A DNA stretch of 11,850 bases, from IMG/VR virus record IMGVR_UViG_2623620491_000015, positions 1 through 11,850 of that record. One strand, written 5' to 3'. This document shows positions 1-11,850 of the stretch, piece by piece. The notes under the pieces are model-generated. The model did no database searches. It was not told the DNA's origin and saw only the letters and a list, made by a program, of their open reading frames with translations. The DNA is from a virus. Taxonomy: Duplodnaviria > Heunggongvirae > Uroviricota > Caudoviricetes. A program made the translations under genes and the position numbers. The stretch's first letter is position 1; each line of letters begins with the position of its first letter.

Positions 1-333
1 AAGCTCTAATAGCTCCGCAAATTCGCCTACACGCATCCTGCTGGTTGACTGGCCTATTACCACAAAGCCATTCCCGGAAAGGTTAGGAACAACGTCCTGC
101 TGCTTTAATGCTGCGGTAAACACACACTTCCAGCTTTCTGCATCCAGCCAGCGACCATGCCATTCAACCTGACGAGAGACGTCACCTAAGCAGGCCCATA
201 GCTTCCTGTTTTGGTCTAAGCTGCGGTTGCGTTGCTTAAACTCGACAATGATGTCTAAATCGCATGTCCTAAGGTACTGAATGGCGTTATATCTTATAGA
301 TTCATTGGTAAGGTGATATTTGACACATTTCAT
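1..333 (-). CDS. ninB: NinB (Orf-family recombination mediator), C-terminus runs off the left window edge; N-terminal ~34 aa differ from the lambda-type NinB
   Basis: Minus-strand ATG at 333-331 with GAGG 8 nt upstream. Own translation gives MKCVKYHLTNESIRYNAIQYLRTCDLDIIVEFKQRNRSLDQNRKLWACLGDVSRQVEWHGRWLDAESWKCVFTAALKQQDVVPNLSGNGFVVIGQSTSRMRVGEFAELLEL, open to position 1. From RNRSLDQ onward it matches NinB as I recall it. Not in the ORF track because it is edge-truncated. Confidence 0.75.
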   Translation of the reverse strand, partial: MKCVKYHLTNESIRYNAIQYLRTCDLDIIVEFKQRNRSLDQNRKLWACLGDVSRQVEWHGRWLDAESWKCVFTAALKQQDVVPNLSGNGFVVIGQSTSRMRVGEFAELLEL

Positions 334-826
334 TTTAATACCTCGCAAATTCGCCGAAACATTCATCCGCTTTATTTGCATATACTTTATGAGCTTCCTT
401 TGGGTCATCGTAAAACCCAAGATTAACTTTCCTCTTGTTGATTACGATTTGCGCCCTCCATTTTCTTGATTTCTTATCCCATGAAACGCCTTTATATCCT
501 GATTTGTTATTTGCCTTTTTGTTTACGTTTTGGATGTTTTGAGATCGAGTTGCCAATCTAAGATTTGCTATACGATTGTCATCCCTAACGAGATTTATGT
601 GGTCGATATCACTTTTTGGTAGACTGCCATTCATATAGAGCCACGCCAGCCTGTGTGCCTTATAAAGTTTTCCATCGACTTTTATTACCCAGTAGCCTTC
701 GCTACTCTTATGCCCTGCGATATCCCCAGCATTCATTCTCTGGCATTTCTTTACTTTCCATGTGAATTTCCCTGTTAACTCATCGTAGAGAAGGACTTCT
801 TTTAGTCTCTGCTGAGTTATTTGATT
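232..826 (-). mobile_element. Homing-endonuclease cassette inserted in the 5' part of ninB (HNH-AP2 coding segment plus a replacement ninB 5' end)
   Basis: NinB-like sequence sits on both sides: residues 1-32 at 922..827 and from residue ~35 at 231 downward. The intervening segment is visibly AT-rich compared with flanking DNA and encodes the endonuclease domains plus a new ninB start with its own SD. Boundaries are approximate. Confidence 0.5.
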
Positions 827-922
827 GATTGGTTTGGTTGGGTCTGGAAGGATTTGCTGTACTGCGTGAATAGCGTTCTGCTGATGTGCTGGAGATCGAA
901 TTTCAAAGGTTAGTTTTTTCAT
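335..922 (-). CDS. HNH (HNH_3) + AP2-domain homing endonuclease, fused in frame to the first 32 residues of lambda-type NinB
   Basis: Track ORF 335..940 starts at TTG; the ATG at 922 (MKKLTFEI...) has a purine-rich SD (GGGAGAGGGAAG) just upstream. Motif DIDHINLVRDDNRIANLRLATRSQN is HNH_3-like; SGYKGVSWDKKSRKWRAQIVINKRKVNLGFYDDPKEAHKVYANKA is AP2-like. The first 32 aa read like the NinB N-terminus. Confidence 0.8.
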   Translation of the reverse strand: MKKLTFEIRSPAHQQNAIHAVQQILPDPTKPINQITQQRLKEVLLYDELTGKFTWKVKKCQRMNAGDIAGHKSSEGYWVIKVDGKLYKAHRLAWLYMNGSLPKSDIDHINLVRDDNRIANLRLATRSQNIQNVNKKANNKSGYKGVSWDKKSRKWRAQIVINKRKVNLGFYDDPKEAHKVYANKADECFGEFARY

Positions 923-936
923 GACTTCCCTCTCCC

Positions 937-970
937 CCAAATAAAAAGGCCTGCGATTACCAGCAGGCCT
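937..970 (-). terminator. tR2-like intrinsic terminator between helicase and ninB region
   Basis: Perfect 8-bp inverted repeat aggcctgc / gcaggcct (947-954, 963-970) with an 8-nt loop. On the minus strand it is followed by TTTTATTTGG. Confidence 0.6.
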
Positions 971-995
971 GTTATTAGCTCAGTGATGTAGATGG

Positions 996-2372
996 TCATA
1001 CGTCAGCCCCTTGTGCATATCGTCTGCCACGCGCAGCAGGTGCATTTGATGCTGTGCAAATCTGTCTGGCTTCATCCTGGTCACATGCAACAAAGTGTCC
1101 GTTACAGAACCGCTGGTAAACCGTACCAAGCGAGCCAAAACGGTTTTTCGTCACGATGATTTCAGCAAATGGCGCGGCGCTACTGTTCTCGTCATATACC
1201 GCTTCCCGATAGAGCATGATGATTGAGTCTGCGTCCTGTTCAATGCTTCCTGAATCACGCAAATCTGCGTTTGTCGGGCGTTTGTTTGGTCGCTTCTCAA
1301 CATCGCGCGAAAGCTGACTTAGGGAGATAACAGGCGTTTTCAGGTCTTTCGCCATCGCCTTCAGGCTTCCGGAGATGTGAGCAATTGCTAGGTCGTTGCG
1401 GTCTGCTTTCGGCTTCTCAATCAGGCCAAGATAATCCGCCATGATTAGAGACAGGTTTGGATTTTCCTGTTTATGCCGTTCTGCGATTGAGCGTATTTCT
1501 TCGACCGATAACCGCGAGGCATCGACTACCCATACATCCAAATCTGCAAGCTGACTCATGCCGTTAGCAACACGCGCCCAGCCTTCGTCATCCATCGATG
1601 CAGGATTTCGCAGTACGCTAACCGACATCCTCCCGGCGTTGGCAATGCTTCGCTCTGCAATCTGCAATGCGCTCATTTCCATTGAGAAAATCAATACCCC
1701 GCGCCGGACGTCAGAACCAGGAATAACGCGGCTTGCAACGCCTTCGGCAATCTTCAGCGCCAGTTCGGTTTTCCCCATACCAGGACGAGCAGCGATTATC
1801 ACCAGGTCTTCTGCGTTCATCCCTCCGGTGATGGCATCAAGTTCTTCGATTCCGGTCTTCAGGGTATCGGACTCTTCTCCGTTCCTCAGACGCCTGTCAA
1901 GCGTGTCAGTGTAGTCAGTGATGATTTCCCCTAACCGTACAGGTTTAACCTCGTCACGGGGCTTTCTGATAGCTGAGAGACGTTTTACAAGTTCATCCAT
2001 CGCCTGACTCGATGCGTCGATGGTTCCGCTCTGAATTGGTTCACGCATTTCATCCATGATTTCCAGCACCAGACGGCGGTGATAGTTATCCGCGACCATT
2101 CCGGCATATCCCTTCAGGTTTGCGGCACTCGGGCAGTTTTTGCTGGTCATCAGGATTGACGTGAAATGCTCCTCTCCGCATTCCTCAGCAACCATCAGCG
2201 CGTCGATTAGGTTTCTGTTTCGCGCCTGCTTGCGGATAACCTCGAAGGCTTTCCGGTAGAGCGGAATTGAAAACGCTTCCGGCTCCAGCGTTGCCAGAAC
2301 GTCACTGGCGGTTGGAGTTAATCCACCAATCAGCAAGCCACCGATAACGCTCGCTTCGATATCCTGTCTCAT
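996..2372 (-). CDS. Replicative DNA helicase, DnaB family (P22 gp12-like)
   Basis: 458-aa ORF with Walker A ([15 protein letters not shown]) and DnaB-type RecA-fold motifs ([29 protein letters not shown]). ATG at 2372 overlaps the upstream gene's stop (ATGA). Confidence 0.9.
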
Positions 2373-3316
2373 GCAATCCCCCTGTCTGCAAACTTCCCTT
2401 CCCGTACTCCCGTTAACGAATCTTCCCTCAGCAGGTAATCAAAATCTGCCGTCCAGCCCGTGTCGTTGTCTCCGAAGTAAAACGGCTTGGCCTGATGCAC
2501 AAACGCCCTGACATACGCTCTGAAACCGTCCACGTTTGGCGTTTTCAGTTGCGGAATGATTTTCTTCAGGCGACGTTTGCGTTTCTCGTTGACCGCAACA
2601 GCGTGTGGCAGTCTGTCACCGACTTCGGTGTTGTAGGCATTCAGGAAGGATTCATAGTCGATTCGTTCTGCCTTGCGACGTTCAGGTTTAACCTGCCCAT
2701 CGCCTCCCCCATTGGGGGGTAGGGGGGTATTATTTATATTCTTGTTAATACCTTCTTGTTCATGATGTGCGGTTGTTTGTGCGGCTTCATGTGCGCTTTC
2801 ATGTGCGGCATGTACGCTGAAAGCCGCGCCATTACTGGCTTCGTCATGTGCGGCGTCATGTGCGGTTGTTTGTGCGGCTTCATGTGCGGGTGAATTGTCC
2901 ATTTTTTGAGCATATTCATGGTAATTTGTGATGGTGATCACACGACCTTTTTGCTTCTCTCCATCAATGGTGATCATCCCCTCTTTCACAAAAACCTGAA
3001 GCATCCGCTCAACCTGATCACGGCTTGCCGGCTTGCCATGCCTGTCGCATAACTGAAGACCTAAATCAGCTGCTGTCACAACCAGTTGACCGGGTTGCAG
3101 ATGCCATTCATGACCTTTGAAATTCGCTTTGTATGGCTTTCTGGCGGCATTCAGGAGAAGGTTTTCCCACAGGGTGCGAAGATAAACATCTTTCGCCCAT
3201 GACTGTTTCAGAATGCTCCGGTACAACGGAATGTAACCAGTTTTCTGGTTCTCCATCCTGTTGCTCCTGCGCTCGTGTGCGGCGCTGAAATCGTAGATTT
3301 TTGCTGTGTTGCTCAT
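2369..3316 (-). CDS. Replication initiator protein (lambda O / P22 gp18-like) with a repetitive Ala/His-rich linker
   Basis: 315-aa ORF. The N-terminus [10 protein letters not shown] resembles lambda O (MTNTAKILNF). It sits immediately upstream of, and translationally coupled to, the helicase gene. The internal repeat region coincides with the iteron-like DNA repeats. Confidence 0.8.
2766..2894. repeat. Eight copies of a 12-bp direct repeat TGTGCGGnnnnn in two clusters of four; candidate ori iterons
   Basis: Units at 2766, 2778, 2790, 2802 and 2847, 2859, 2871, 2883 (tgtgcggttgtt, tgtgcggcttca, tgtgcgctttca, ...). A G-rich then AT-rich stretch follows at 2710-2760 (ggggggtaggggggtattatttatattcttgttaata). 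This is the same arrangement as ori-lambda inside O. Confidence 0.55.
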
Positions 3317-3318
3317 AA

Positions 3319-3591
3319 CTACCTGCCTTGACGAAAGACCTTAAGAACATCGTTAAACTGACTTACGGATATGTCTTCTTTGAGCAGCTTTTCCAGAAAT
3401 GCGTTTGGAATGAACGTATATCCATCCTCTTTTGGTAGAGACGGGAGCAACGCCCTCGCCTCAGCCTTCAGAAGCTCAGTTCTGGCAACTTTCACAAAAG
3501 AGATTTGAGTTCTTTCATCAATGGAACGAAGGAAGCGCAAACGCTTAGCTTCTTTGTGTGTATCAGGTGGATTAAAGCCTTTGTTTCGCAT
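3319..3591 (-). CDS. Hypothetical protein (90 aa) between cII and the O-like gene
   Basis: Internal ATG of track ORF 3319..3756 at 3591 with GAGG SD. The upstream part of the track ORF overlaps cII in another frame and is discarded. The stop abuts the O-like start. Confidence 0.55.
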   Translation of the reverse strand: MRNKGFNPPDTHKEAKRLRFLRSIDERTQISFVKVARTELLKAEARALLPSLPKEDGYTFIPNAFLEKLLKEDISVSQFNDVLKVFRQGR

Positions 3592-3602
3592 ATAATTACC
3601 TC

Positions 3603-3669
3603 GTTGGATGTTGTTAAAATTCCATTTGTATTTGATCAGAACGCTCGGTTGCCGCCGGGCGTTTTTTAT
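3603..3669 (+). ncRNA. oop: oop-like antisense RNA overlapping the 3' end of cII
   Basis: Plus-strand TATAAT at 3591-3596. The 3' end CAGAACGCTCGGTTGCCGCCGGGCGTTTTTTATT matches the lambda oop terminator as I recall it. It is antisense to the last ~55 nt of cII. The 5' end is an estimate. Confidence 0.6.
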
Positions 3670-3910
3670 TGGTGAGTCCATCAAGCGCATACTTAAAAGC
3701 CCTGCTAATCGGACTGATATCTGATGCCATTCCGAAAGCACACAAGACCGAGGCAATAAATCTCCAGTCCGTTCTGCTTATCTTCGATTCATGACAGCCA
3801 ATCATCTTTGCCAGACCGCGCTGGGTAAGTGTTGACAGGTTGATGAGTAAATCGGTTTCTGCGCGATCAACATCGCGCTGTGATAGTTTGCTGTAACTTG
3901 TTTGTTCCAT
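3614..3910 (-). CDS. cII: Transcriptional activator CII
   Basis: 98 aa. The C-terminus LTNKKRPAATERSDQIQMEF and the central ...ESKISR... match lambda CII. Position between cro and the replication genes fits. Confidence 0.9.
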   Translation of the reverse strand: MEQTSYSKLSQRDVDRAETDLLINLSTLTQRGLAKMIGCHESKISRTDWRFIASVLCAFGMASDISPISRAFKYALDGLTNKKRPAATERSDQIQMEF

Positions 3911-3925
3911 TTCTTACTATTTCCA
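3888..3925 (+). promoter_or_regulatory. PRE-like promoter with CII-box repeats (TTGC-N6-TTGT) overlapping the cII start
   Basis: ttgc tgtaac ttgt at 3888-3901, immediately beside the cII ATG (complement of 3908-3910). Same geometry as lambda PRE, oriented toward cro and cI. Confidence 0.5.
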
Positions 3926-3974
3926 TAGGTAAATAATCACTAATACTCATCTTTCGATGAGCGATTAATTAGTT

Positions 3975-4010
3975 ACCGCGTTGTCGGCGGTGCAGATTGA
4001 TAAAGAGCGG
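3975..4010 (-). promoter_or_regulatory. nutR (boxA + P22-type boxB)
   Basis: Minus strand reads CCGCTCTTTA (boxA, 4001-4010), then ACCGCCGACAACGCGGT (boxB hairpin, 3975-3991), between cro and cII. Confidence 0.7.
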
Positions 4011-4019
4011 ATCCGCTTA

Positions 4020-4235
4020 TTAAGCGGCTTTGTGTTCCGGCGGGAACACGTCATCAAGACTGACTTTTGCGCCTAACTTGTTTAGGCACGCAACAAGAGC
4101 ACGGCATGTTTTAAGGTCTGGGAAGCGACGACCAGATTCCCAATGTCCGATAGCTCCCTGTGTGCATCCAACCGCCTTAGCAAGTGTTGTTTGAGAGATA
4201 TTCAGTGACTCTCGATATTTTCGTAGGTTGCTCAT
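4020..4235 (-). CDS. cro: Cro-like HTH repressor (71 aa)
   Basis: Internal ATG at 4235 with GGAGGG SD directly upstream. HTH region SQTTLAKAVGCTQGAIGHWESGRR. Divergent from cI across the operator region. The 5' extension of the track ORF is discarded. Confidence 0.8.
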   Translation of the reverse strand: MSNLRKYRESLNISQTTLAKAVGCTQGAIGHWESGRRFPDLKTCRALVACLNKLGAKVSLDDVFPPEHKAA

Positions 4236-4346
4236 ATGCCCTCCATAGTAACCATGAAACAATAATACGATATGTACTTTTGGAATGCAAACAAAAAATA
4301 CATCTTGTGCATGGATGGTTTTAGTACATAGCGTAATAATAAGGAT
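4236..4346. promoter_or_regulatory. OR region: divergent PR/PRM with repeated ~17-bp operator motif
   Basis: Operator-like sites at 4262-4280 and 4321-4339 are inverted copies (AGTACATAnCGTAnTA) and are partly palindromic. PR candidate on the minus strand: -35 TTGCAT (complement of 4285-4290), 17 bp, -10 TATTAT (complement of 4262-4267). cI may be nearly leaderless. Confidence 0.6.
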
Positions 4347-5006
4347 ATGAAAATGAAATGGTATGAACTGGCTAGATCCAGAATGAAAGAGCTCGGCATA
4401 ACTCAAGAGAAGTTAGCTGAAGAGCTTGGTATGACGCAGGGTGGAATTGGTCACTGGTTGCGCGGATCTCGTCATCCATCTCTTGACGAGATTGGTGTGG
4501 TGTTTAAATACCTTGGTATTGATAACGTCTCATTCAACCACGACGGTACATTTTCACCTGCTGGCGAATACTCATCTGCCCCCGTTAAAAAACAATATGA
4601 GTACCCTGTTTTTTCTCATGTTCAGGCCGGGATGTTCTCGCCTGAGCTTAGAACCTTTACCAAAGGTGATGCGGAGAGATGGGTCAGCACAACCAAAAAA
4701 GCCAGTGATTGTGCGTTTTGGCTTGAAGTTGAAGGTAATTCCATGACCGCACCAACAGGATCCAAGCCAAGCTTTCCTGACGGAATGTTAATTCTCGTTG
4801 ACCCTGAGCAGGCTGTTGAGCCAGGAGATTTCTGCATAGCCAGACTTGGCGGTGACGAGTTTACCTTCAAGAAACTGATCAGGGATAGCGGTCAGGTGTT
4901 CCTACAACCACTAAACCCGCAATATCCAATGATCCCATGCAATGATAGCTGTTCCGTAGTAGGGAAAGTTATCGCCAGCCAGTGGCCTGAAGAGACATTT
5001 AGTTAA
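4347..5006 (+). CDS. cI: CI repressor (LexA-like S24 autocleavage domain); lambda-type C-terminal domain with a non-lambda N-terminal HTH domain
   Basis: The C-terminal ~125 aa ([22 protein letters not shown]...[11 protein letters not shown]) are near-identical to lambda CI as I recall it. N-terminal HTH is [25 protein letters not shown]. Alternative start ATG at 4353 with AAGGA SD. Confidence 0.9.
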
Positions 5007-5038
5007 CAGCCTCACCACTCTAAAACACACAACAATAA

Positions 5039-5066
5039 CCCGACCTTAGCGTCGGGTTTTCTTTTT
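5039..5066 (+). terminator. Intrinsic terminator downstream of cI
   Basis: cccgac-cttagc-gtcggg hairpin followed by TTTTCTTTTT. Confidence 0.7.
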
Positions 5067-5085
5067 CCAAAATATAAATCAATAA

Positions 5086-5160
5086 AATACAAAGTGTTAT
5101 AAAAAACCAACCACATTTAGAACATTTTGTATTGACTCAATAAAGTACACATCGTACTAT
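5086..5160 (+). promoter_or_regulatory. OL/PL: leftward early promoter with operator sites
   Basis: -35 TTGACT (5132-5137), 17 bp, -10 TACTAT (5155-5160). Site AGTACACATCGTACTAT (5144-5160) matches the OR motif. Inverted pair aatacaaagtgtt (5086-5098) / aacattttgtatt (5121-5133) lies upstream. Confidence 0.6.
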
Positions 5161-5206
5161 TTAGCCATCAGCAGGAAGCTGGAAGCCAAACGGAACAGAT
5201 TGGCAG

Positions 5207-5240
5207 GCTCTTTAACTTCGATGGGGCGCTGACAAAGCGC
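5207..5240 (+). promoter_or_regulatory. nutL (boxA GCTCTTTAAC + P22-type boxB GCGCTGACAAAGCGC)
   Basis: boxA-like at 5207-5216 and a perfect 5-bp stem / 5-nt loop hairpin at 5226-5240, in the PL leader upstream of N. Confidence 0.75.
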
Positions 5241-5359
5241 AAACAGATACCAAACGAGATGGGTTTGGCGGTGATGTGAATTGCAGCTGCAACGACAGCA
5301 ACCAGAAGATCAGCACCTGGCGCATCACCACCAAAGCCATTTCACATGAGGAAAATATC

Positions 5360-5668
5360 ATGACGGTAATCGTGTACGGAAAATCAACATTTGCAGGAAA
5401 TGCCAAAACTCGCCGTCATGAGCGGCGCAGAAAGCTGGCTATCGAGCGTGATGCTATATGCAACATCATCGATTCGATCTTCGGCACAGACAGTGAGGAA
5501 CCTGTTCAGGAAGCCCCGAGAAAGCGTTTAAGCATTTCTGAAAAAGCAATATCACTCGGCATCATTAGCAAATCAAATACAGATGCGAATAGCGGAAGCG
5601 TTTGTTTGCCTGAAGTTGCACTGTATGCTGCTGGTTACAGAAGGCAAAAACTAATTACAGCGAGGTAA
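5360..5668 (+). CDS. N: Antitermination protein N (P22 gp24-type arginine-rich motif)
   Basis: ATG at 5360 with GAGGA SD. N-terminus MTVIVYGKSTFAGNAKTRRHERRRKLAIER matches the boxB-binding peptide of P22 N. The upstream part of the track ORF is discarded. Confidence 0.85.
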   Translation: MTVIVYGKSTFAGNAKTRRHERRRKLAIERDAICNIIDSIFGTDSEEPVQEAPRKRLSISEKAISLGIISKSNTDANSGSVCLPEVALYAAGYRRQKLITAR

Positions 5669-5670
5669 AA

Positions 5671-5949
5671 ATGAAGCCTAGCATAACAATCAAGCCAGCG
5701 AGAGATAATAGCAGGAACCGCCGCAGAGAGGCCAGGAAGGCAGAAAGAGCAGAGAAGGAAAACAAGAGCCGGGAGGAGAGAAAGGCAGAGATTTTGGAAA
5801 AAGGAGGATTGGCTGCCGTGAGGGGTGAAAAAGCAGCTGAATTAGCAGTAGCTCACGAAAAGACAGAGATTGACAATAATTCTGGTGGAGATGCAATGTT
5901 TAAAGTTGTCAATCACGCCCATCAACGAAACCCCAAAAAGAAATGGTAA
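5671..5949 (+). CDS. Hypothetical highly charged (Arg/Lys/Glu-rich) 92-aa protein
   Basis: ATG 3 nt after the N stop with GAGG SD. The DNA is strongly purine-rich on the coding strand. Ends just before a terminator. Confidence 0.55.
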   Translation: MKPSITIKPARDNSRNRRREARKAERAEKENKSREERKAEILEKGGLAAVRGEKAAELAVAHEKTEIDNNSGGDAMFKVVNHAHQRNPKKKW

Positions 5950-5952
5950 TCA

Positions 5953-5977
5953 ACCCGTCCAAGACGGGTTTTTTATT
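5953..5977 (+). terminator. Intrinsic terminator (tL1-like)
   Basis: cccgtc-caa-gacggg hairpin followed by TTTTTTATT. Confidence 0.7.
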
Positions 5978-6006
5978 GCAAGCAAACCACTTATTTGAGA
6001 TGAGAT

Positions 6007-6372
6007 ATGGAAGAACAAGCAAACAAGATTCTCGTAGAACTACTGCAAAAAGCCAGCAATGGAATAGACGCGGCTGTTTCATTTAGCCAGGCACAGATTC
6101 CTGATGTCATCCATCAGCTTTTGATGTGGCACGCCGTATCATCAGCTGGAATTCAGGCTATCTGTGTATTGGTGATTATAGCGTGTGTTTATCTGATGAT
6201 TTTTGCATGGAATAAAGGAGATGATGCGGATGTTGTTCTTTTATCGCTACTTGTAACATCAGGAATAGCGATTACTTCTATTGTTGTTTTCTTCAATTAT
6301 TTCGACTGGCTGAAAATCTGGCTTGCTCCAAAACTTTACCTTATCGAATATGCAGCATCATTGGTTAAGTAA
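6007..6372 (+). CDS. Hypothetical small membrane protein (two predicted TM helices)
   Basis: 121 aa. Hydrophobic segments IQAICVLVIIACVYLMIFAW and VVLLSLLVTSGIAITSIVVFF. Sits where lambdoid phages carry sieB/ral-type accessory genes. Weak SD. Confidence 0.55.
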   Translation: MEEQANKILVELLQKASNGIDAAVSFSQAQIPDVIHQLLMWHAVSSAGIQAICVLVIIACVYLMIFAWNKGDDADVVLLSLLVTSGIAITSIVVFFNYFDWLKIWLAPKLYLIEYAASLVK

Positions 6373-6376
6373 TTTC

Positions 6377-6402
6377 AGGCCGCATAGTCGGCCTTCATTT
6401 TT
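6377..6402 (+). terminator. Intrinsic terminator
   Basis: aggccg-catagt-cggcct hairpin followed by TCATTTTT. Confidence 0.6.
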
Positions 6403-6404
6403 GG

Positions 6405-6547
6405 CATAAACAACAGAATAAACACTGCACTGTGTATTCATTCCAACGAGTGAATACACGGAGCAATGTCGCTCGTAACTAAACAGGAGCCGACTTGTTC
6501 TGATTATTGGAAATCTTCTTTGCCCTCCAGTGTGAGGGCATTTTTTT
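6405..6547 (+). ncRNA. Candidate structured non-coding RNA or leader bounded by two terminators
   Basis: No ORF. 9-bp perfect inverted repeat gtgtattca / tgaatacac (6432-6440, 6451-6459), additional pairing acgag / ctcgt, and a terminal intrinsic terminator gccctc-cagtgt-gagggc + TTTTTTT (6522-6547). Confidence 0.35.
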
Positions 6548-6559
6548 GACGGAGGAAAT

Positions 6560-6871
6560 ATGAAATTACGTGTCTGGCATATCCCGCAAGTACCTATGAA
6601 GCCGTTCATTGTAGAAGTGGCAAGTGTTGAAGAGGGTGTTCGCCTGATGGACGCACTGGCTGATTATGACGCCTTTCAGTATGACAACAACATCAAGCCT
6701 GATTACTGCAATGCTAACGGCCTTGAGATGTGGGATGAGAGCCTTACCGATGAAGATTTATCAGAGATGGGGCTTACTGATCGCTGGGTGGATTGGTACA
6801 GCGAATGCCAATGTTACGACGACCCACGTAAATATCTCGAAAGCCTGAAAGAAGAAACATCAGCCGCCTAA
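6560..6871 (+). CDS. Hypothetical acidic 103-aa protein
   Basis: ATG with GGAGG SD. Strongly acidic composition (many D/E, Trp-rich). Sits in the ea10/ral-equivalent position. Confidence 0.65.
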   Translation: MKLRVWHIPQVPMKPFIVEVASVEEGVRLMDALADYDAFQYDNNIKPDYCNANGLEMWDESLTDEDLSEMGLTDRWVDWYSECQCYDDPRKYLESLKEETSAA

Positions 6872-6946
6872 GCGCGGCTTTACCGCATACCAATAACGCT
6901 TCACTCGAGGCGTTTTCGTTATGCAATCAAATATAAGGAGTTACCC

Positions 6947-7081
6947 ATGATGCACTTTCAGCTCGCGGGTAGCGGCGTCATGTCCGCTTTCTACCCGCAC
7001 GAATCTGAATTATCACGCCGAGTTAAACAATTAATCAGAGCAGCAAAGAAACAACTGGAGGCGTTATGCGCAATGAAATAG
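6947..7081 (+). CDS. cIII: CIII-like FtsH-inhibitor peptide (44 aa)
   Basis: Not in the track (<60 aa). AAGGAG SD 7 nt upstream. MMHFQLAGSGVMSAFYPHESELSRRVKQLIRAAKKQLEAL resembles the lambda CIII core (AIAGWPVAGCPSESLLERITRKLRDGWKRL). Confidence 0.7.
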   Translation: MMHFQLAGSGVMSAFYPHESELSRRVKQLIRAAKKQLEALCAMK

Positions 7082-7218
7082 CCATTAATCACCAGATGCT
7101 TCGTGCGGCACAAAACAAAGCAGTAATAGCCAGATTTATTGGTGATTCAAAAATGTGGCTTGAAGCAAATAAAGCGATGAAATCAGCTATCAACCTTCCG
7201 TGGTATCGCAGGAAATGA
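7066..7218 (+). CDS. kil: Kil-like peptide (50 aa), putative host cell-division inhibitor
   Basis: Not in the track. GGAGG SD; the start overlaps the cIII-like 3' end. Motif ARFIGDSKMW resembles lambda Kil as I recall it. Synteny cIII then kil. Confidence 0.5.
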   Translation: MRNEIAINHQMLRAAQNKAVIARFIGDSKMWLEANKAMKSAINLPWYRRK

Positions 7219-7293
7219 GTTTTACAGATAACTGGTCAGACGAAGAATTCATTCGTCAGATGAAAGAATTAATCGGTAACGAAGGAGATATTC

Positions 7294-7464
7294 ATGTCAC
7301 TTGCAACCACAGTGAAGGAGAGCAAGTTACAGAGACGCATGTACACGCAGCAGGCGTTAATGTATCGCCAGAAGGGAGATCGTGAAGGTGTTCGCGTATT
7401 TTTAAATGCGGCAAAGACTGAAGTATTAAATCAGCGTTATTTCCTTGGGCCGTGTCCATTCTGA
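7294..7464 (+). CDS. Hypothetical 56-aa protein (Arf-like position upstream of the annealing protein)
   Basis: AAGGAG SD 6 nt upstream of the ATG. Plausible helical sequence MSLATTVKESKLQRRMYTQQALMYRQKGDREGVRVFLNAAKTEVLNQRYFLGPCPF. A competing ORF 7215..7385 in another frame is coupled to kil by ATGA. Confidence 0.5.
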   Translation: MSLATTVKESKLQRRMYTQQALMYRQKGDREGVRVFLNAAKTEVLNQRYFLGPCPF

Positions 7465-7472
7465 GGTGAATT

Positions 7473-8180
7473 ATGGATTTGAATAAATTCGATGAGCCAT
7501 TCAGCCCTGAAGATATCGAATGGCGAATACAGCAAAGCGGTAAAACACGCGATGGCAAAGTGTGGGCTATGGTGCTGGCTTATGTAACGAACCGGGCAAT
7601 CATGAAACGCCTGGACGATGTTTGCGGCAAAGCAGGATGGCGCAATGAATACCGCGATATTCCCAACAACGGCGGCGTTGAATGCGGCATATCAATAAAG
7701 ATTGATTCCGAATGGGTAACCAAATGGGATGCTGCTGAAAACACGCAGGTAGAAGCCGTCAAAGGTGGTCGTTCCGGTGCAATGAAGCGCGCTGCCGTTC
7801 AGTGGGGAATCGGTCGGTATCTGTATAACCTTGAGGAAGGTTTCGCACAAACATCTCTCGATAAAAAGCAGGGATGGCACAGGGCAAAACTCAAGGATGG
7901 AACAGGATTTTACTGGCTCCCTCCATCGCTGCCGGGATGGGCAATACCAGCATCAGATAACAAACCATCACCAGAAAATACCAACCAGAAATCTCCATCG
8001 GTTGACTGCGAACAAATCCTGAAAGACTTCAGCGATTATGCGTCAACAGAAACTGACAAGAAAAAACTCATCGAGCGTTATCAGCGTGACTGGCAATTAA
8101 TGGCTGGCAATGAGGAGGCGCAGGCTAAATGCGTTCAGGTAATGAACATCAGAGTTAACGAACTAAAACAGGCGGCATAA
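7473..8180 (+). CDS. Single-strand annealing protein, Rad52/Sak family
   Basis: 235 aa with Rad52-like motifs (RLDDVCGKAGW ... GAMKRAAVQWGIGRYLY). Directly precedes ssb. Confidence 0.7.
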   Translation: MDLNKFDEPFSPEDIEWRIQQSGKTRDGKVWAMVLAYVTNRAIMKRLDDVCGKAGWRNEYRDIPNNGGVECGISIKIDSEWVTKWDAAENTQVEAVKGGRSGAMKRAAVQWGIGRYLYNLEEGFAQTSLDKKQGWHRAKLKDGTGFYWLPPSLPGWAIPASDNKPSPENTNQKSPSVDCEQILKDFSDYASTETDKKKLIERYQRDWQLMAGNEEAQAKCVQVMNIRVNELKQAA

Positions 8181-8687
8181 ATGGCAAGCAGAGGCGTAAA
8201 TAAGGTGATTATCCTTGGTCGGGTAGGACAAGACCCGGAAGTTCGATACTCACCATCAGGTACAGCGTTCGCTAACCTGACAATAGCCACGTCAGAACAA
8301 TGGCGAGATAAAAATACTGGCGAGCAAAAGGAATTGACTGAATGGCATCGTGTTGCTGTATCCGGGAAACTGGCTGAGGTCGTGGGGCAGTATGTGAAAA
8401 AAGGTGATCAGATTTATTTCGAGGGAATGCTGAGAACCAGAAAGTGGAAAGACCAGTCAGGGCAAGACCGTTACACAACCGAGGTTCATGTCGGAATTAA
8501 TGGCGTGATGCAAATGCTTGGCGGCATTGGCGACAGCAAACAACAAGCAGCCAGCAGGCAATCACAGAAGCCACAGCAGCAATCATCACCAGCACAACAC
8601 AACGAACCTCCGATGGATTTTGACGACGATATACCCTTTGCACCAGTAACTCTCCCCTTCCCTCGTCACGCTATTCACGCAATTTAA
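8181..8687 (+). CDS. ssb: Single-stranded DNA-binding protein with a 15-aa extension after the DDDIPF motif
   Basis: OB-fold N-terminus ([23 protein letters not shown]...), Q/S-rich linker, then MDFDDDIPF followed by [15 protein letters not shown] before the stop. Confidence 0.85.
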
Positions 8688-8700
8688 TCAGGAGAAAATC

Positions 8701-8997
8701 ATGCCAGCGCCTCAGTATGGTGCGGATGACCCGCGCCGCTGTTCCGGCAATTCCGTATCGGAGGTGCTGGATAAATTCAGGAAAAACTACGACCGGATAA
8801 TGTCGCTACCGCAGGAAACGAAAGAGGAAAAGGAATTTCGCCATTGTATATGGCTTGCAGAGAAAGAAGAACGCGAGCGAATTTACCAGACATCAATCCG
8901 ACCATTCCGCAAAGCCACATATACCCACTTCCCTGAATATATCGACCCTCGCCTGCGTAATTACCGCTCACGCTATGGCGCTATCAGTAATGACTGA
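8701..8997 (+). CDS. Hypothetical protein (98 aa)
   Basis: ATG with AGGAG SD. Confidence 0.6.
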
Positions 8998-9007
8998 GGA
9001 ATTTACT

Positions 9008-9172
9008 ATGAGAGGACTTGCATACAATCCCGGCATTCTTCCGGCAGAAATGATTATTCGCCAACGCGTAAAGCCAATGCCATCGAGAGAGGAATTGCTT
9101 AAGAGAAATTCTTTTCAATCAGTAAATCAAAACAAATATCTGAATGCGATGTTGCGGAGTGGGAAGAAATGA
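9008..9172 (+). CDS. Hypothetical protein (54 aa)
   Basis: ATG at 9008 with GAGGA SD. The upstream part of track ORF 8855..9172 overlaps the previous gene and is discarded. Confidence 0.5.
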
Positions 9173-9645
9173 AACAAATGTCACTAATTGAGATGGATGG
9201 ATTCCTGAAAGGTAAATGCATCCCCCGAGATTTAAAGGTTAACGAAACAAACGCTGAATATCTGGTGCGTAAGTTCGGTGAACTTGAATCAAAACTAGAA
9301 ACGGCGTTGCGGGAGTGTCGTTCTGCTGGAATCACGATTGATAACCTTGAGGCCAAGTGCGCGGCGCTGGCTGCTGAAAAAGAGACATTTGCTGTCGAGT
9401 GTGCGGCCGCAAAAATCGCCATTGCATACCTGAAATCAGGACGACAGGATTTTTCGCTTAACACCCCAGCCACTGACGCTTTCCTGGCTGAAGTCCGGGC
9501 TAAGGCGTTTGATGACCTTTGCGCGGCGTTCGTTAAGCACGCGTCGGTGTCCGGGCTGGACGATGGCGACTGCGTTACGGTGAAAGAGGCGACTGACGCC
9601 CTGCTGCATTGTGCGGAACAGCTTCACGAGGGAGTGCATTCATGA
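9169..9645 (+). CDS. Hypothetical protein (158 aa)
   Basis: ATGA overlap with the upstream gene. Predicted helical, Ala-rich. Confidence 0.6.
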
Positions 9646-9875
9646 GCAACCTACTACCATGTCCATTCTGTGGCGGCGCAGCGCACGTTGCCAGCGAAGC
9701 AGATCACCCTGAATATGGCTCTGGCGGTCGATTCTATTTCGTTCGATGCGGTACGTGTCGCGCTCAATCTGGTAGCAAATATGCAGCGCCTGGAAATGAC
9801 TGCGCGATTTTTTATTCAGAGGTTAGAGCAGAGTGGAATCAGCGAGCAAAGGAGGCAACCAGTGAGCCAGATTGA
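9642..9875 (+). CDS. lar: Lar-family restriction alleviation protein (zinc-ribbon)
   Basis: ATGA overlap with the upstream stop. [12 protein letters not shown] ... RCGTCR ... EWNQRA matches the Lar/RalR pattern (CPFCG ... C..C ... WN.R). Confidence 0.65.
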   Translation: MSNLLPCPFCGGAAHVASEADHPEYGSGGRFYFVRCGTCRAQSGSKYAAPGNDCAIFYSEVRAEWNQRAKEATSEPD

Positions 9876-10413
9876 TTATCAGGCACTGCGTGCTAAGGCA
9901 GAAAAAGCAACGTGTGGTGTGTGGTCGCTCGAATATGGAGAGAGCCGATTTGATTGTGATGATGCGCTAATTCATCGTGACGTTGTTGGATATCTTCCCA
10001 TTTGCAGAATTGAAGGAGCGCATCCAGAAAGCGGTTTCGATGAAGATTTCCAAATGGAACAGCAGGCCAATGCTGAATTCATCGCCGCAGCCAATCCGGC
10101 TACTGTGCTGGCATTACTGGATGAACGGGAAAGGAACCAGCAATACATCAAATCCCGCGACCAGGAGAACGAGGAGATTGCGTTAACGGTAGGGAAGTTG
10201 CGCGTTGAGCTTGAGGCAGAAAAACAGCGGGCAAAGGATCTGTTTATGGAAAATGCTCGGCTTAAGTCAGGTATAGCCGGTCTGATACACCTCGGTATTC
10301 GATATGCAGATGTTGAGGTCATGAGAATTGCTGGAGATGCCCAGCTTTCTACCCCATGCACTGACAGCATCATAAACAGCATTGCAACAGGCATTCGCAT
10401 CAAAGGAGAGTGA
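9862..10413 (+). CDS. Ead/Ea22-like protein
   Basis: GTG start with AAGGAGG SD 7 nt upstream. N-terminus SQIDYQALRAKAEKATCGVW is typical of the Ea22-like family. The part of the track ORF upstream of 9862 overlaps lar in another frame and is discarded. Confidence 0.65.
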   Translation: MSQIDYQALRAKAEKATCGVWSLEYGESRFDCDDALIHRDVVGYLPICRIEGAHPESGFDEDFQMEQQANAEFIAAANPATVLALLDERERNQQYIKSRDQENEEIALTVGKLRVELEAEKQRAKDLFMENARLKSGIAGLIHLGIRYADVEVMRIAGDAQLSTPCTDSIINSIATGIRIKGE

Positions 10414-10615
10414 TATGAGCAGGAATATGGGTTTGTAAAAGATAACGCTTGTGAAAATGCTGAATTTCGCGTCGTCTTCACAGCGATGCCAGAGTCTGTA
10501 GTGTCAGATGATGACCGTACTCAAACATCGGGTTGAGTATTATCTTACTGTTTCTTTACATAAACATTGCTGATACCGTTTAGCTGAAACGACATACATT
10601 TCAAGGAGTTTATAA

Positions 10616-10897
10616 ATGCGTATCAATGAGTTAGAGTCTGAGCAAAAAGATTGGGCGTTATCAATGTTGTGCAGATCCGGTGTCTTGTCTCCATGCAGAC
10701 ATCACGAAGGTGTTTATGTAGATGAAGGTATAGATATAGAGTCGGCATACAAATATTCAATGAAGGTTTATAAGTCTAATGAAGACAAATCCCCATTCTG
10801 CAATGTGCGAGAAATGACTGATACCGTGCAAAATTATTATCACGAGTACGGTGGAAACGATACTTGCCCTCTCTGTGCAAAACATATAGATGATTAA
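10616..10897 (+). CDS. Hypothetical Cys-rich 93-aa protein in an AT-rich island (moron-like)
   Basis: AAGGAG SD. Visibly AT-rich compared with flanking DNA. Cysteines include a C-terminal CPLC pair. Followed by an intrinsic terminator. Confidence 0.6.
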   Translation: MRINELESEQKDWALSMLCRSGVLSPCRHHEGVYVDEGIDIESAYKYSMKVYKSNEDKSPFCNVREMTDTVQNYYHEYGGNDTCPLCAKHIDD

Positions 10898-10917
10898 ACC
10901 AAATATTACATAACAAT

Positions 10918-10944
10918 CCTCGCACTCGCGGGGATTTCTTTTAT
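10918..10944 (+). terminator. Intrinsic terminator
   Basis: cctcgc-actc-gcgggg hairpin followed by ATTTCTTTTAT. Confidence 0.6.
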
Positions 10945-10985
10945 CTGAACTCGCTACGGCGGGTTTTGTTTTATGGAGATGATAA

Positions 10986-11153
10986 ATGCACTTCCGAGTC
11001 ACAGGTGAATGGAATGGAGAGCCATTCAACAGGGTTATCGAAGCAGAGAACATCAACGACTGCTATGACCACTGGATGCTATGGGCGCAGATAGCACATG
11101 CAGACGTAACCAATATTCGAATTGAAGAACTGAAAGAACACCAAGCCGCCTGA
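10986..11153 (+). CDS. Hypothetical protein (55 aa)
   Basis: Not in the track. ATG with GGAG upstream. The stop lies inside the terminator hairpin. Confidence 0.45.
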   Translation: MHFRVTGEWNGEPFNRVIEAENINDCYDHWMLWAQIAHADVTNIRIEELKEHQAA

Positions 11154-11168
11154 TGGCGGTTTTTTATT
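11146..11168 (+). terminator. Intrinsic terminator
   Basis: ccgcc-tgat-ggcgg hairpin followed by TTTTTTATT. Confidence 0.6.
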
Positions 11169-11179
11169 GGAGACAAGAA

Positions 11180-11524
11180 ATGTCAGATTTGGCTATGAAG
11201 GTTTTGAAATGGCAATCAACTGGCGATGTTGGCATCAGTAGCGCAACTCTTGCCTCAATCGCATGTGGCCTGAAAAAGAATATCTATGGTCATCACTTCG
11301 GCGCTCCCCATGACGCAGCAGACTTTCGGCGATGCGTTGCACTTGTTGAGCAGATTCCAGAAATCAGAGATTCATTCGACAAGGTTGCAAAGCGCGTTCC
11401 GGTATTCAAAGGCATCCTCAACGAATGGGATTCCCTCGTCGCTCTGTTGAAGTCTGAAATGAAGACGTACGGGAACAAAGCACCAGAGACTTACAGAAGA
11501 ATCAGCGAGCTACGCAAGGACTAA
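11180..11524 (+). CDS. Hypothetical protein (114 aa)
   Basis: ATG at 11180 with GGAGA SD. The 9-codon upstream extension in the track overlaps the terminator and is discarded. Confidence 0.6.
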   Translation: MSDLAMKVLKWQSTGDVGISSATLASIACGLKKNIYGHHFGAPHDAADFRRCVALVEQIPEIRDSFDKVAKRVPVFKGILNEWDSLVALLKSEMKTYGNKAPETYRRISELRKD

Positions 11525-11584
11525 CCACAGCCTCACACTCGATGAGGCCTGTTCATTGCTCAATGATATCCAGACCTACCATCG

Positions 11585-11607
11585 CCGCATCAATGCGGTT
11601 TTTTATT
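11585..11607 (+). terminator. Intrinsic terminator
   Basis: ccgcat-ca-atgcgg dyad followed by TTTTTTATT. Confidence 0.55.
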
Positions 11608-11649
11608 GCCTGATTTACAGGTTCGATTCCCTATTCGGAGATAGCACTC

Positions 11650-11850
11650 ATGCAACACGAACTACAGCCTGATTCACTGGTTGATTTGAAATTCATCATG
11701 GCCGATACTGGCTTCGGTAAGACCTTCATCTATGACCGGATTAAGTCCGGCGACCTGCCTAAAGCCAAAGTTATCCACGGGCGAGCAAGATGGTTATATC
11801 GTGACCATTGTGAATTCAAAAATAAGCTCTTAAGCCGCGCCAATGGGTAA
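11650..11850 (+). CDS. xis: Excisionase / AlpA-family DNA-binding protein
   Basis: 66 aa. FIYDRIKSGDLPKAKVIHGRARW is an AlpA/Xis-type winged-helix motif. The stop codon is the last three bases of the window; an integrase is expected just beyond. Confidence 0.7.
   Translation: MQHELQPDSLVDLKFIMADTGFGKTFIYDRIKSGDLPKAKVIHGRARWLYRDHCEFKNKLLSRANG

Follow-up and report, generated by a model that had tools for sequence, protein, structure and literature searches.

A strongly acidic early protein of an E. coli lambdoid phage belongs to the P22 gp17 family and probably counteracts exclusion by a prophage

Here we examined a short open reading frame (ORF) in 11,850 nucleotides of phage DNA (IMG/VR record IMGVR_UViG_2623620491_000015, positions 1 to 11,850; hereafter the window) and identify it, from its sequence, as an ortholog of gene 17 of Salmonella phage P22, carried by an E. 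coli lambdoid phage or prophage of the mosaic, H-19B/Stx1-like kind. Its product, gp17, counteracts exclusion according to the cited P22 genetics, so that "superinfection exclusion protein", the name under which it is catalogued, is a misnomer. We think it probable, short of confident, that gp17 binds and neutralises an abortive-infection or exclusion protein encoded by a prophage. The gene, its family and the P22 phenotype are already known, and this is an ordinary catalogued accessory gene of the lambdoid early operon; the residual interest lies in the mechanism of a large phage family whose fold is confidently modelled but unmatched.

Results and discussion

An ortholog of P22 gene 17

The ORF at 6560-6871 on the plus strand runs from ATG to TAA and encodes 103 amino acids (ORF list and direct reading of the sequence). 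The product contains 23 Asp and Glu against nine Lys and Arg residues, together with one His, four Trp, six Tyr and three Cys, as the earlier note on this DNA had described in calling it strongly acidic, with an excess of Asp/Glu and several Trp and Tyr. The isoelectric point, which that note had proposed to compute, is indeed acidic at 4.14, with a calculated net charge of -14.4 at pH 7, and the ORF ranks first in acidity among the plus-strand, ATG-started ORFs of at least 60 amino acids in the window.

Compared with the Pfam profile GP17 (PF17420, "Superinfection exclusion gene product 17"), the product scored 186.8 bits, the cut-off being 25 (E = 7.3e-56), with residues 1-98 aligned on positions 1-98 of the 98 in the profile, and PHROG 1510 was matched at E = 5.7e-58. 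Nothing besides GP17 was returned by the Pfam scan at E values up to 0.1, with no match to a Ral or Lar profile, and the NCBIfam and PADLOC scans of gp17 gave no match. Alignment with P22 gp17 (UniProt P14109), a protein of the same family and length, showed 92 of the 103 residues to be identical without any insertion or deletion (88.3% identity by tblastn against gene 17 of P22-pbi), and the dN/dS of 0.125 between the two genes therefore indicates purifying selection on the gp17 reading frame. The protein of the Stx1a-converting phage EH2115 is 100% identical to the product, and that of the Stx1 phage H-19B (AF034975), annotated "protein gp17, similar to P22 gp17", shares 100 of 103 residues (97%). 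The exact sequence is also the NCBI entry [quoted passage not shown], found on at least 1000 contigs, and gene 17 occurs in 135 of 5426 complete E. coli genomes. The "Gp17" of mEp021 was rejected as a relative, being an unrelated N-like protein.

Homologues are numerous: a word-indexed search recovered 246 clusters, and an exhaustive profile search covering 1.84 billion representatives recovered 1174 clusters (at 50% identity) at E ≤ 1e-3, including 764 at E ≤ 1e-10. Because of these homologues, the full-length GP17 match and the dN/dS against P22, the ORF is by all sequence measures a real, selected gene and no chance reading frame. Two ORFs that overlap it, 6666-6848 on the plus strand and 6774-6926 on the minus strand, were discarded as by-products, since it is the gp17 frame that matches the family over its full length and is under purifying selection.

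A cargo slot in the pL operon

The window comprises the immunity and early region of a lambdoid phage. Its minus strand carries genes for a DnaB-type helicase, an O-like replication protein, cII and a Cro-like HTH protein, and its plus strand carries, in order, cI, a pL-like promoter, N, a Nun-like ORF, an ORF for a membrane protein of 121 amino acids, gene 17, cIII and kil, followed by two arf-like ORFs, an Erf/Rad52-type annealase, SSB (so labelled from reading its translation), Abc2, a Lar-like ORF, Ead/Ea22 and ea8.5. The best phage record covers at most 44% of the window, the top matches being coliphages of the P22-like and lambdoid kinds (HF4s, Gally and CUS-3 among them), and the window is therefore a typical mosaic. 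H-19B DNA is about 99% identical from position 6427 onward and differs upstream, which places a mosaic joint there. The features on which the argument draws are collected in Table 1.

Table 1. Features of the window and of the Fels-2 cargo interval
Feature	Position	Strand	Source or remark
cI	4347-5006	+	
pL-like sigma-70 promoter, TTGACT-17-TACTAT, should drive the operon	5132..5160	+	promoter scan; between cI and N as in lambda/P22; function inferred
N-type antiterminator gene; start uncertain, 5276 GTG or 5360 ATG	5276..5668	+	Pfam N_peptide PF25694, E = 3.9e-38
Terminator-like site between N and gene 17	5952-5970	+	terminator scan
Conserved structured intergenic element, corresponding to the lambda ral-ea10 intergenic region (tL2 cluster)	6377..6546	+	alignment, RNA fold, terminator scan
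First terminator-like hairpin of the intergenic element	6377-6394	+	terminator scan
Intrinsic-terminator-like hairpin with T7 run, last terminator of the tL2-type element	6521..6547 (hairpin 6521-6540)	+	terminator scan
Shine-Dalgarno sequence GGAGG, 4 nt 5' of the ATG	6551..6555	+	direct sequence reading
Gene 17 ortholog (GP17 family, PF17420), acidic cytoplasmic protein, 103 aa	6560..6871	+	Pfam, PHROG, P22 alignment, AlphaFold
Two hairpins 3' of gene 17: 6862-6879 across the stop codon (P22 tL2 position) and 6895-6914, terminator-like with T-rich tail	6862..6914	+	terminator scan
cIII, 3' border of the cargo slot	6947..7081	+	Pfam cIII PF08134, E = 2e-30
STM2723.1, 565 aa, AbiU/AIPR	Fels-2 22639-24336	-	PADLOC AbiU, E = 2.7e-112; Pfam AIPR; PHROG 1841 "abortive infection"
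STM2726, 243 aa, PHROG 1353 (function not assigned)	Fels-2 24604-25335	-	

The roughly 170 nucleotides 5' of gene 17 align nearly base for base with lambda 33905-34086, the ral-ea10 intergenic region, which we take to be the classical tL2 terminator cluster. This element folds with an energy of -52 kcal/mol (z = -4.6) and contains two further strong hairpins between its terminator-like ones, and positions 6420-6559 are matched by 387 phage records, mostly at 95-99% identity. Its last hairpin, the T7 run of which stops four bases short of the Shine-Dalgarno sequence, is nearly identical in lambda and in mEp234, where it is annotated as a rho-independent terminator, and P22 keeps a hairpin and T-run at the same place with a different stem sequence. 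The homology to lambda ends at the T-run and Shine-Dalgarno sequence; beyond it follow ea10 in lambda, an ORF of 322 amino acids in mEp234, and gene 17 here, in H-19B and in P22. Since the homology stops exactly at the T-run, gene 17 is the occupant of a variable cargo slot (the "ea10 slot") between the tL2 element and cIII. The earlier note had assigned the ORF to the early-left operon with a strong Shine-Dalgarno sequence and to the ral/ea10 position, and both placements stand: the gene follows a GGAGG, lies on the same strand as the pL-like promoter and N and downstream of them, upstream of cIII and kil, and has the ral-ea10 intergenic DNA before it. Lambda ea10 resembles gene 17 in position, directly after the same terminator element and before cIII; homology between gp17 and Ea10 was rejected (BLASTP E = 0.19), the two proteins being unrelated and Ea10 a positional analogue only.

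The order N ... 17 - terminator - cIII - kil - arf-like - erf - abc2 is common to the window and P22, with 17 - c3/cIII - kil also in H-19B, and the position of GP17 genes between N and cIII with a terminator after them was found both in the P22-pbi map and in H-19B. In the P22-pbi record the terminator tL2 is annotated as overlapping the 3' end of gene 17, and the block GGAGGAAATATG, which spans the Shine-Dalgarno sequence and the start of the gene, has the same letters in P22 and H-19B. The likeness to P22 thus extends from the protein to the pL slot after N and accessory genes and before c3 and kil, the 3' terminator and the ribosome-binding and start block, whereas the host (Salmonella for P22, E. 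coli for the lambdoid mosaic) and the upstream genes differ, P22 having sieB/esc, ral, orf78 and orf87 in place of the Nun-like ORF and the 121-residue membrane protein.

The promoter scan found no promoter-like site between pL and gene 17, and the stretch from N to gene 17 contains three terminator-like hairpins. Because of this arrangement, as judged by consensus promoter and terminator scans, expression of gene 17 should require N antitermination and be off in the lysogen, and gp17 would be a cytoplasmic protein of the delayed-early class, its synthesis from the pL transcript having to await N-mediated antitermination. Rfam searches of the whole window at gathering thresholds and of positions 5900-7000 at E values up to 1 returned only sub-threshold chance matches, none of them credible.

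Two of the genes upstream of gene 17 are worth recording. The ORF directly after N (5671-5949, plus strand, 92 amino acids) matches PHROG 5632, "Nun-like transcription termination factor", at E = 1.5e-29. An arginine-rich motif lies close to the N-terminus of its product, and the C-terminal part is rich in His and closes with KKKW, which recalls HK022 Nun. This phage thus has both N and a Nun-like gene, the latter followed by the terminator-like hairpin at 5952-5970. The next ORF (6007-6372, plus strand) encodes the predicted membrane protein of 121 amino acids (PHROG 3054), has weak PADLOC matches to a "2TM effector" (E about 0.07), and occupies, after N and before gene 17, the place of sieB in P22 and lambda; it is a possible candidate for a prophage-encoded exclusion or abortive-infection gene.

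Phenotype, name and a candidate target

In the GenBank record of P22-pbi, gene 17 carries the remark "allows growth on phage Fels2 lysogen". According to two later papers (PMC6486243, PMC9409062), which cite Semerjian, Malloy and Poteete (J Mol Biol 1989), gp17 is needed against superinfection exclusion by the Fels-2 prophage. This phenotype belongs to the P22 protein in Salmonella and is extended to the E. coli copy by orthology. Our literature searches found no work on the mechanism or molecular target of gp17. Pfam, PHROGs and NCBI all carry the name "superinfection exclusion protein", even for the copies in virulent Kuttervirus and N4-like phages, and this label states the opposite of the reported genetics and can mislead surveys of defence and anti-defence genes.

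GP17 genes occur in temperate P22-like and lambdoid phages and also in strictly virulent ones, namely Kuttervirus/Ackermannviridae, N4-like Schitoviridae, myophages of Pectobacterium, Serratia and Erwinia, and the Bacillus phages SP-10 and 2S-4. The presence of homologues in virulent phages points to a function that serves the infecting phage, and argues against an exclusion function expressed from a prophage. Given the therapeutic interest in Kuttervirus and N4-like phages, how the family works would be relevant to the prediction of host range. Distant metagenomic members lie in early-region arrays of small ORFs beside repressor-like and RecT genes, and the neighbourhoods of three distant homologues contained small ORFs of no assigned function, with no known anti-defence Pfam family adjoining. 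Longer GP17 members are heterogeneous fusions (RNAP alpha-CTD-like, N4 gp49/Sf6 gp66, DUF6166), possibly gene-calling artefacts, and gave no functional lead.

The role that we propose is counter-defence, gp17 permitting phage growth despite the exclusion or abortive-infection function of another prophage, which for P22 would be the P2-like prophage Fels-2. Most likely it would do so by binding and neutralising, stoichiometrically, either the excluding protein or the signal that this protein senses. We looked for the protein concerned in Fels-2 (NC_010463), which has two cargo genes, STM2723.1 and STM2726, in the interval bounded by the portal gene Q and the replication gene A, the hotspot where P2 carries old and tin. 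Five accessory Fels-2 ORFs were scanned, and none except STM2723.1 matched a defence model. Because it is the only recognisable defence gene among the Fels-2 ORFs scanned, the AbiU/AIPR protein STM2723.1 would by elimination be the best candidate target, and we infer that this AbiU protein, alone or with STM2726, is the simplest explanation of the Fels-2 exclusion that gp17 overcomes; STM2726 or an unrecognised Fels-2 gene could instead be responsible. P2-like phages widely carry AbiU (PMC13586616). Its presence in Fels-2 turns an old genetic observation into a simple and cheap experiment.

A bolder version, which strikes us as possible and on the whole doubtful, is that gp17 is the founder of a very large family of direct AbiU/AIPR inhibitors acting through a hitherto undescribed fold that is ERH-like and strongly acidic, and perhaps imitating the nucleic acid sensed by AbiU. 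If true, the 35-year-old "Fels-2 exclusion" would be AbiU, and a first way into the mechanism of both proteins would open. One anti-AbiU protein, Surt, which looks unrelated to gp17, has been reported from Vibrio phages (bioRxiv 10.1101/2024.06.14.598830); it would be a functional analogue of gp17 if the target of gp17 is the Fels-2 AbiU. The signature motifs of gp17 were not found in those parts of the Surt paper's supplements that were searched.

Fold, conservation and alternative explanations

The structure prediction suggested in the earlier note gave a confident AlphaFold2 model from an alignment of 36 sequences (mean pLDDT 92.7, pTM 0.81), with the element order b(3-8) b(16-20) a(23-42) b(52-58) a(64-70) b(76-78) a(89-102), and with no confident structural match. 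The structure search of BFVD returned family members only, searches of the PDB by sequence and by family profile returned only noise, and the best structural neighbours that recurred, weakly, were ERH proteins, at a TM score of about 0.45 and 5-11% identity. In the model, then, the fold of gp17 is a small alpha+beta sandwich, weakly ERH-like and without a characterised relative; ERH itself differs in being a eukaryotic nuclear adaptor, its scores with gp17 lie in the twilight zone, and there is no sign of common descent or function.

Across the 36 aligned sequences the invariant positions are P9, Q10, F16, L33, Y36, D37, F39, Q40, K46, D48, Y49, N51, W76 and W79, mostly aromatic or polar residues that fall in the loops W-x-I-P-Q-V-P and N-x-I-K-P-D-Y-C-N and in the strand W-V-D-W, motifs that persist in very distant GP17 members. 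The most acidic stretch, residues 59-75 (DESLTDEDLSEMGLTDR), varies in length and is missing in about half of the aligned homologues. This pattern is easier to reconcile with a specific binding site carried by an acidic scaffold than with a purely electrostatic DNA decoy, the site being putative and suggested by the fact that the invariant residues make up aromatic and polar loop motifs. The surface with which gp17 would neutralise an excluding protein may accordingly be imagined as a conserved patch formed by these loop motifs on a compact, strongly acidic alpha+beta domain.

The alternative that survives best, which we nevertheless regard as unlikely, is that of a DNA mimic, in which the acidic surface would imitate the phosphate backbone and block a type I restriction enzyme, RecBCD or another nuclease. 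The acidic excess is large and family-wide, the median net charge of 120 homologues being about -14 and their median pI 4.1, with acidic residues frequent at positions 24, 25, 31, 35, 42, 59, 60, 82, 87 and 88, and from helical periodicity positions 24, 31, 35 and 42 would lie on one face of the long helix 23-42. The size of gp17 and its fraction of Asp and Glu (22%) are within the range of small known DNA mimics, and T7 Ocr and ArdA resemble it as small, early, strongly acidic proteins with a counter-defence role, as do the restriction alleviators Ral of lambda and P22 and Lar of Rac, which are small and early as well. None of these, however, matches gp17 in sequence or fold, no classical DNA mimic was named among the structural matches listed, and the reported phenotype concerns a prophage and not restriction-modification. 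P22, moreover, has ral and 17 side by side (P22-pbi map), and in the window Abc2 and a Lar-like protein are encoded by separate genes of the same pL operon, so that the anti-RecBCD and anti-restriction roles proposed for gp17 are already covered elsewhere. The earlier note had made gp17 a candidate DNA mimic or anti-restriction factor; its counter-defence part gains support from orthology to the genetically characterised P22 gene 17, and its part concerning mimicry, restriction and RecBCD finds none. A variant of the mimic, in which gp17 occludes the site where the excluding Abi protein binds nucleic acid, would merge with the neutralisation of an excluding protein that we favour.

We give less weight again, and consider it quite improbable, to the explanation that gp17 is a sponge for a small immune signal or nucleotide, as are Tad1, Tad2 and Acb2, or serves as an ERH-like adaptor for a short peptide of some conserved host protein, the Fels-2 phenotype then being indirect. 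The small size, the many invariant aromatic residues clustered in loops, the very wide host range including Bacillus phages and the weak but repeated appearance as structural neighbours of ERH proteins, which are peptide-binding adaptors, speak for it, and the reach of the family into Bacillus phages could indeed mean a conserved host target instead of a prophage protein. The weakest is the literal reading of the name, that a prophage makes gp17 to bar other phages, which has three databases behind it and which we regard as very improbable, since the underlying genetics, as far as the citing papers give it, is the opposite, the gene lies in a repressed operon behind three terminator-like hairpins without a promoter-like site of its own, the protein is modelled as a compact soluble alpha+beta domain with no hydrophobic membrane or signal segment seen in its sequence and no PADLOC match, and its homologues are common in virulent phages, which are never lysogenic. 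Exclusion proteins of the SieA, SieB and Imm type, by contrast, are made by the prophage and usually sit in the membrane.

Other genes of the window

Several further genes of the window deserve mention in their own right. The Abc2 anti-RecBCD protein of the pL operon is encoded at 8701-8997 on the plus strand (PF11043, E = 3.5e-61), and the Lar-like restriction-alleviation protein at 9609-9875 on the same strand (PF14354, E = 1.9e-9), where it overlaps the start of the Ead/Ea22 ORF (9670-10413). At the position that arf has in P22, between kil and the Erf/Rad52-type annealase, two small plus-strand ORFs in different frames overlap partially (7200-7385 and 7294-7464), and they match "recombinase" PHROGs (PHROG 2123, E = 5e-40; PHROG 1723, E = 4.5e-34). 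On the minus strand an ORF of 201 amino acids (335-940), downstream of the DnaB-type helicase gene, has HNH_3 and AP2 domains of the homing-endonuclease type and probably represents a mobile endonuclease that has entered the replication module.
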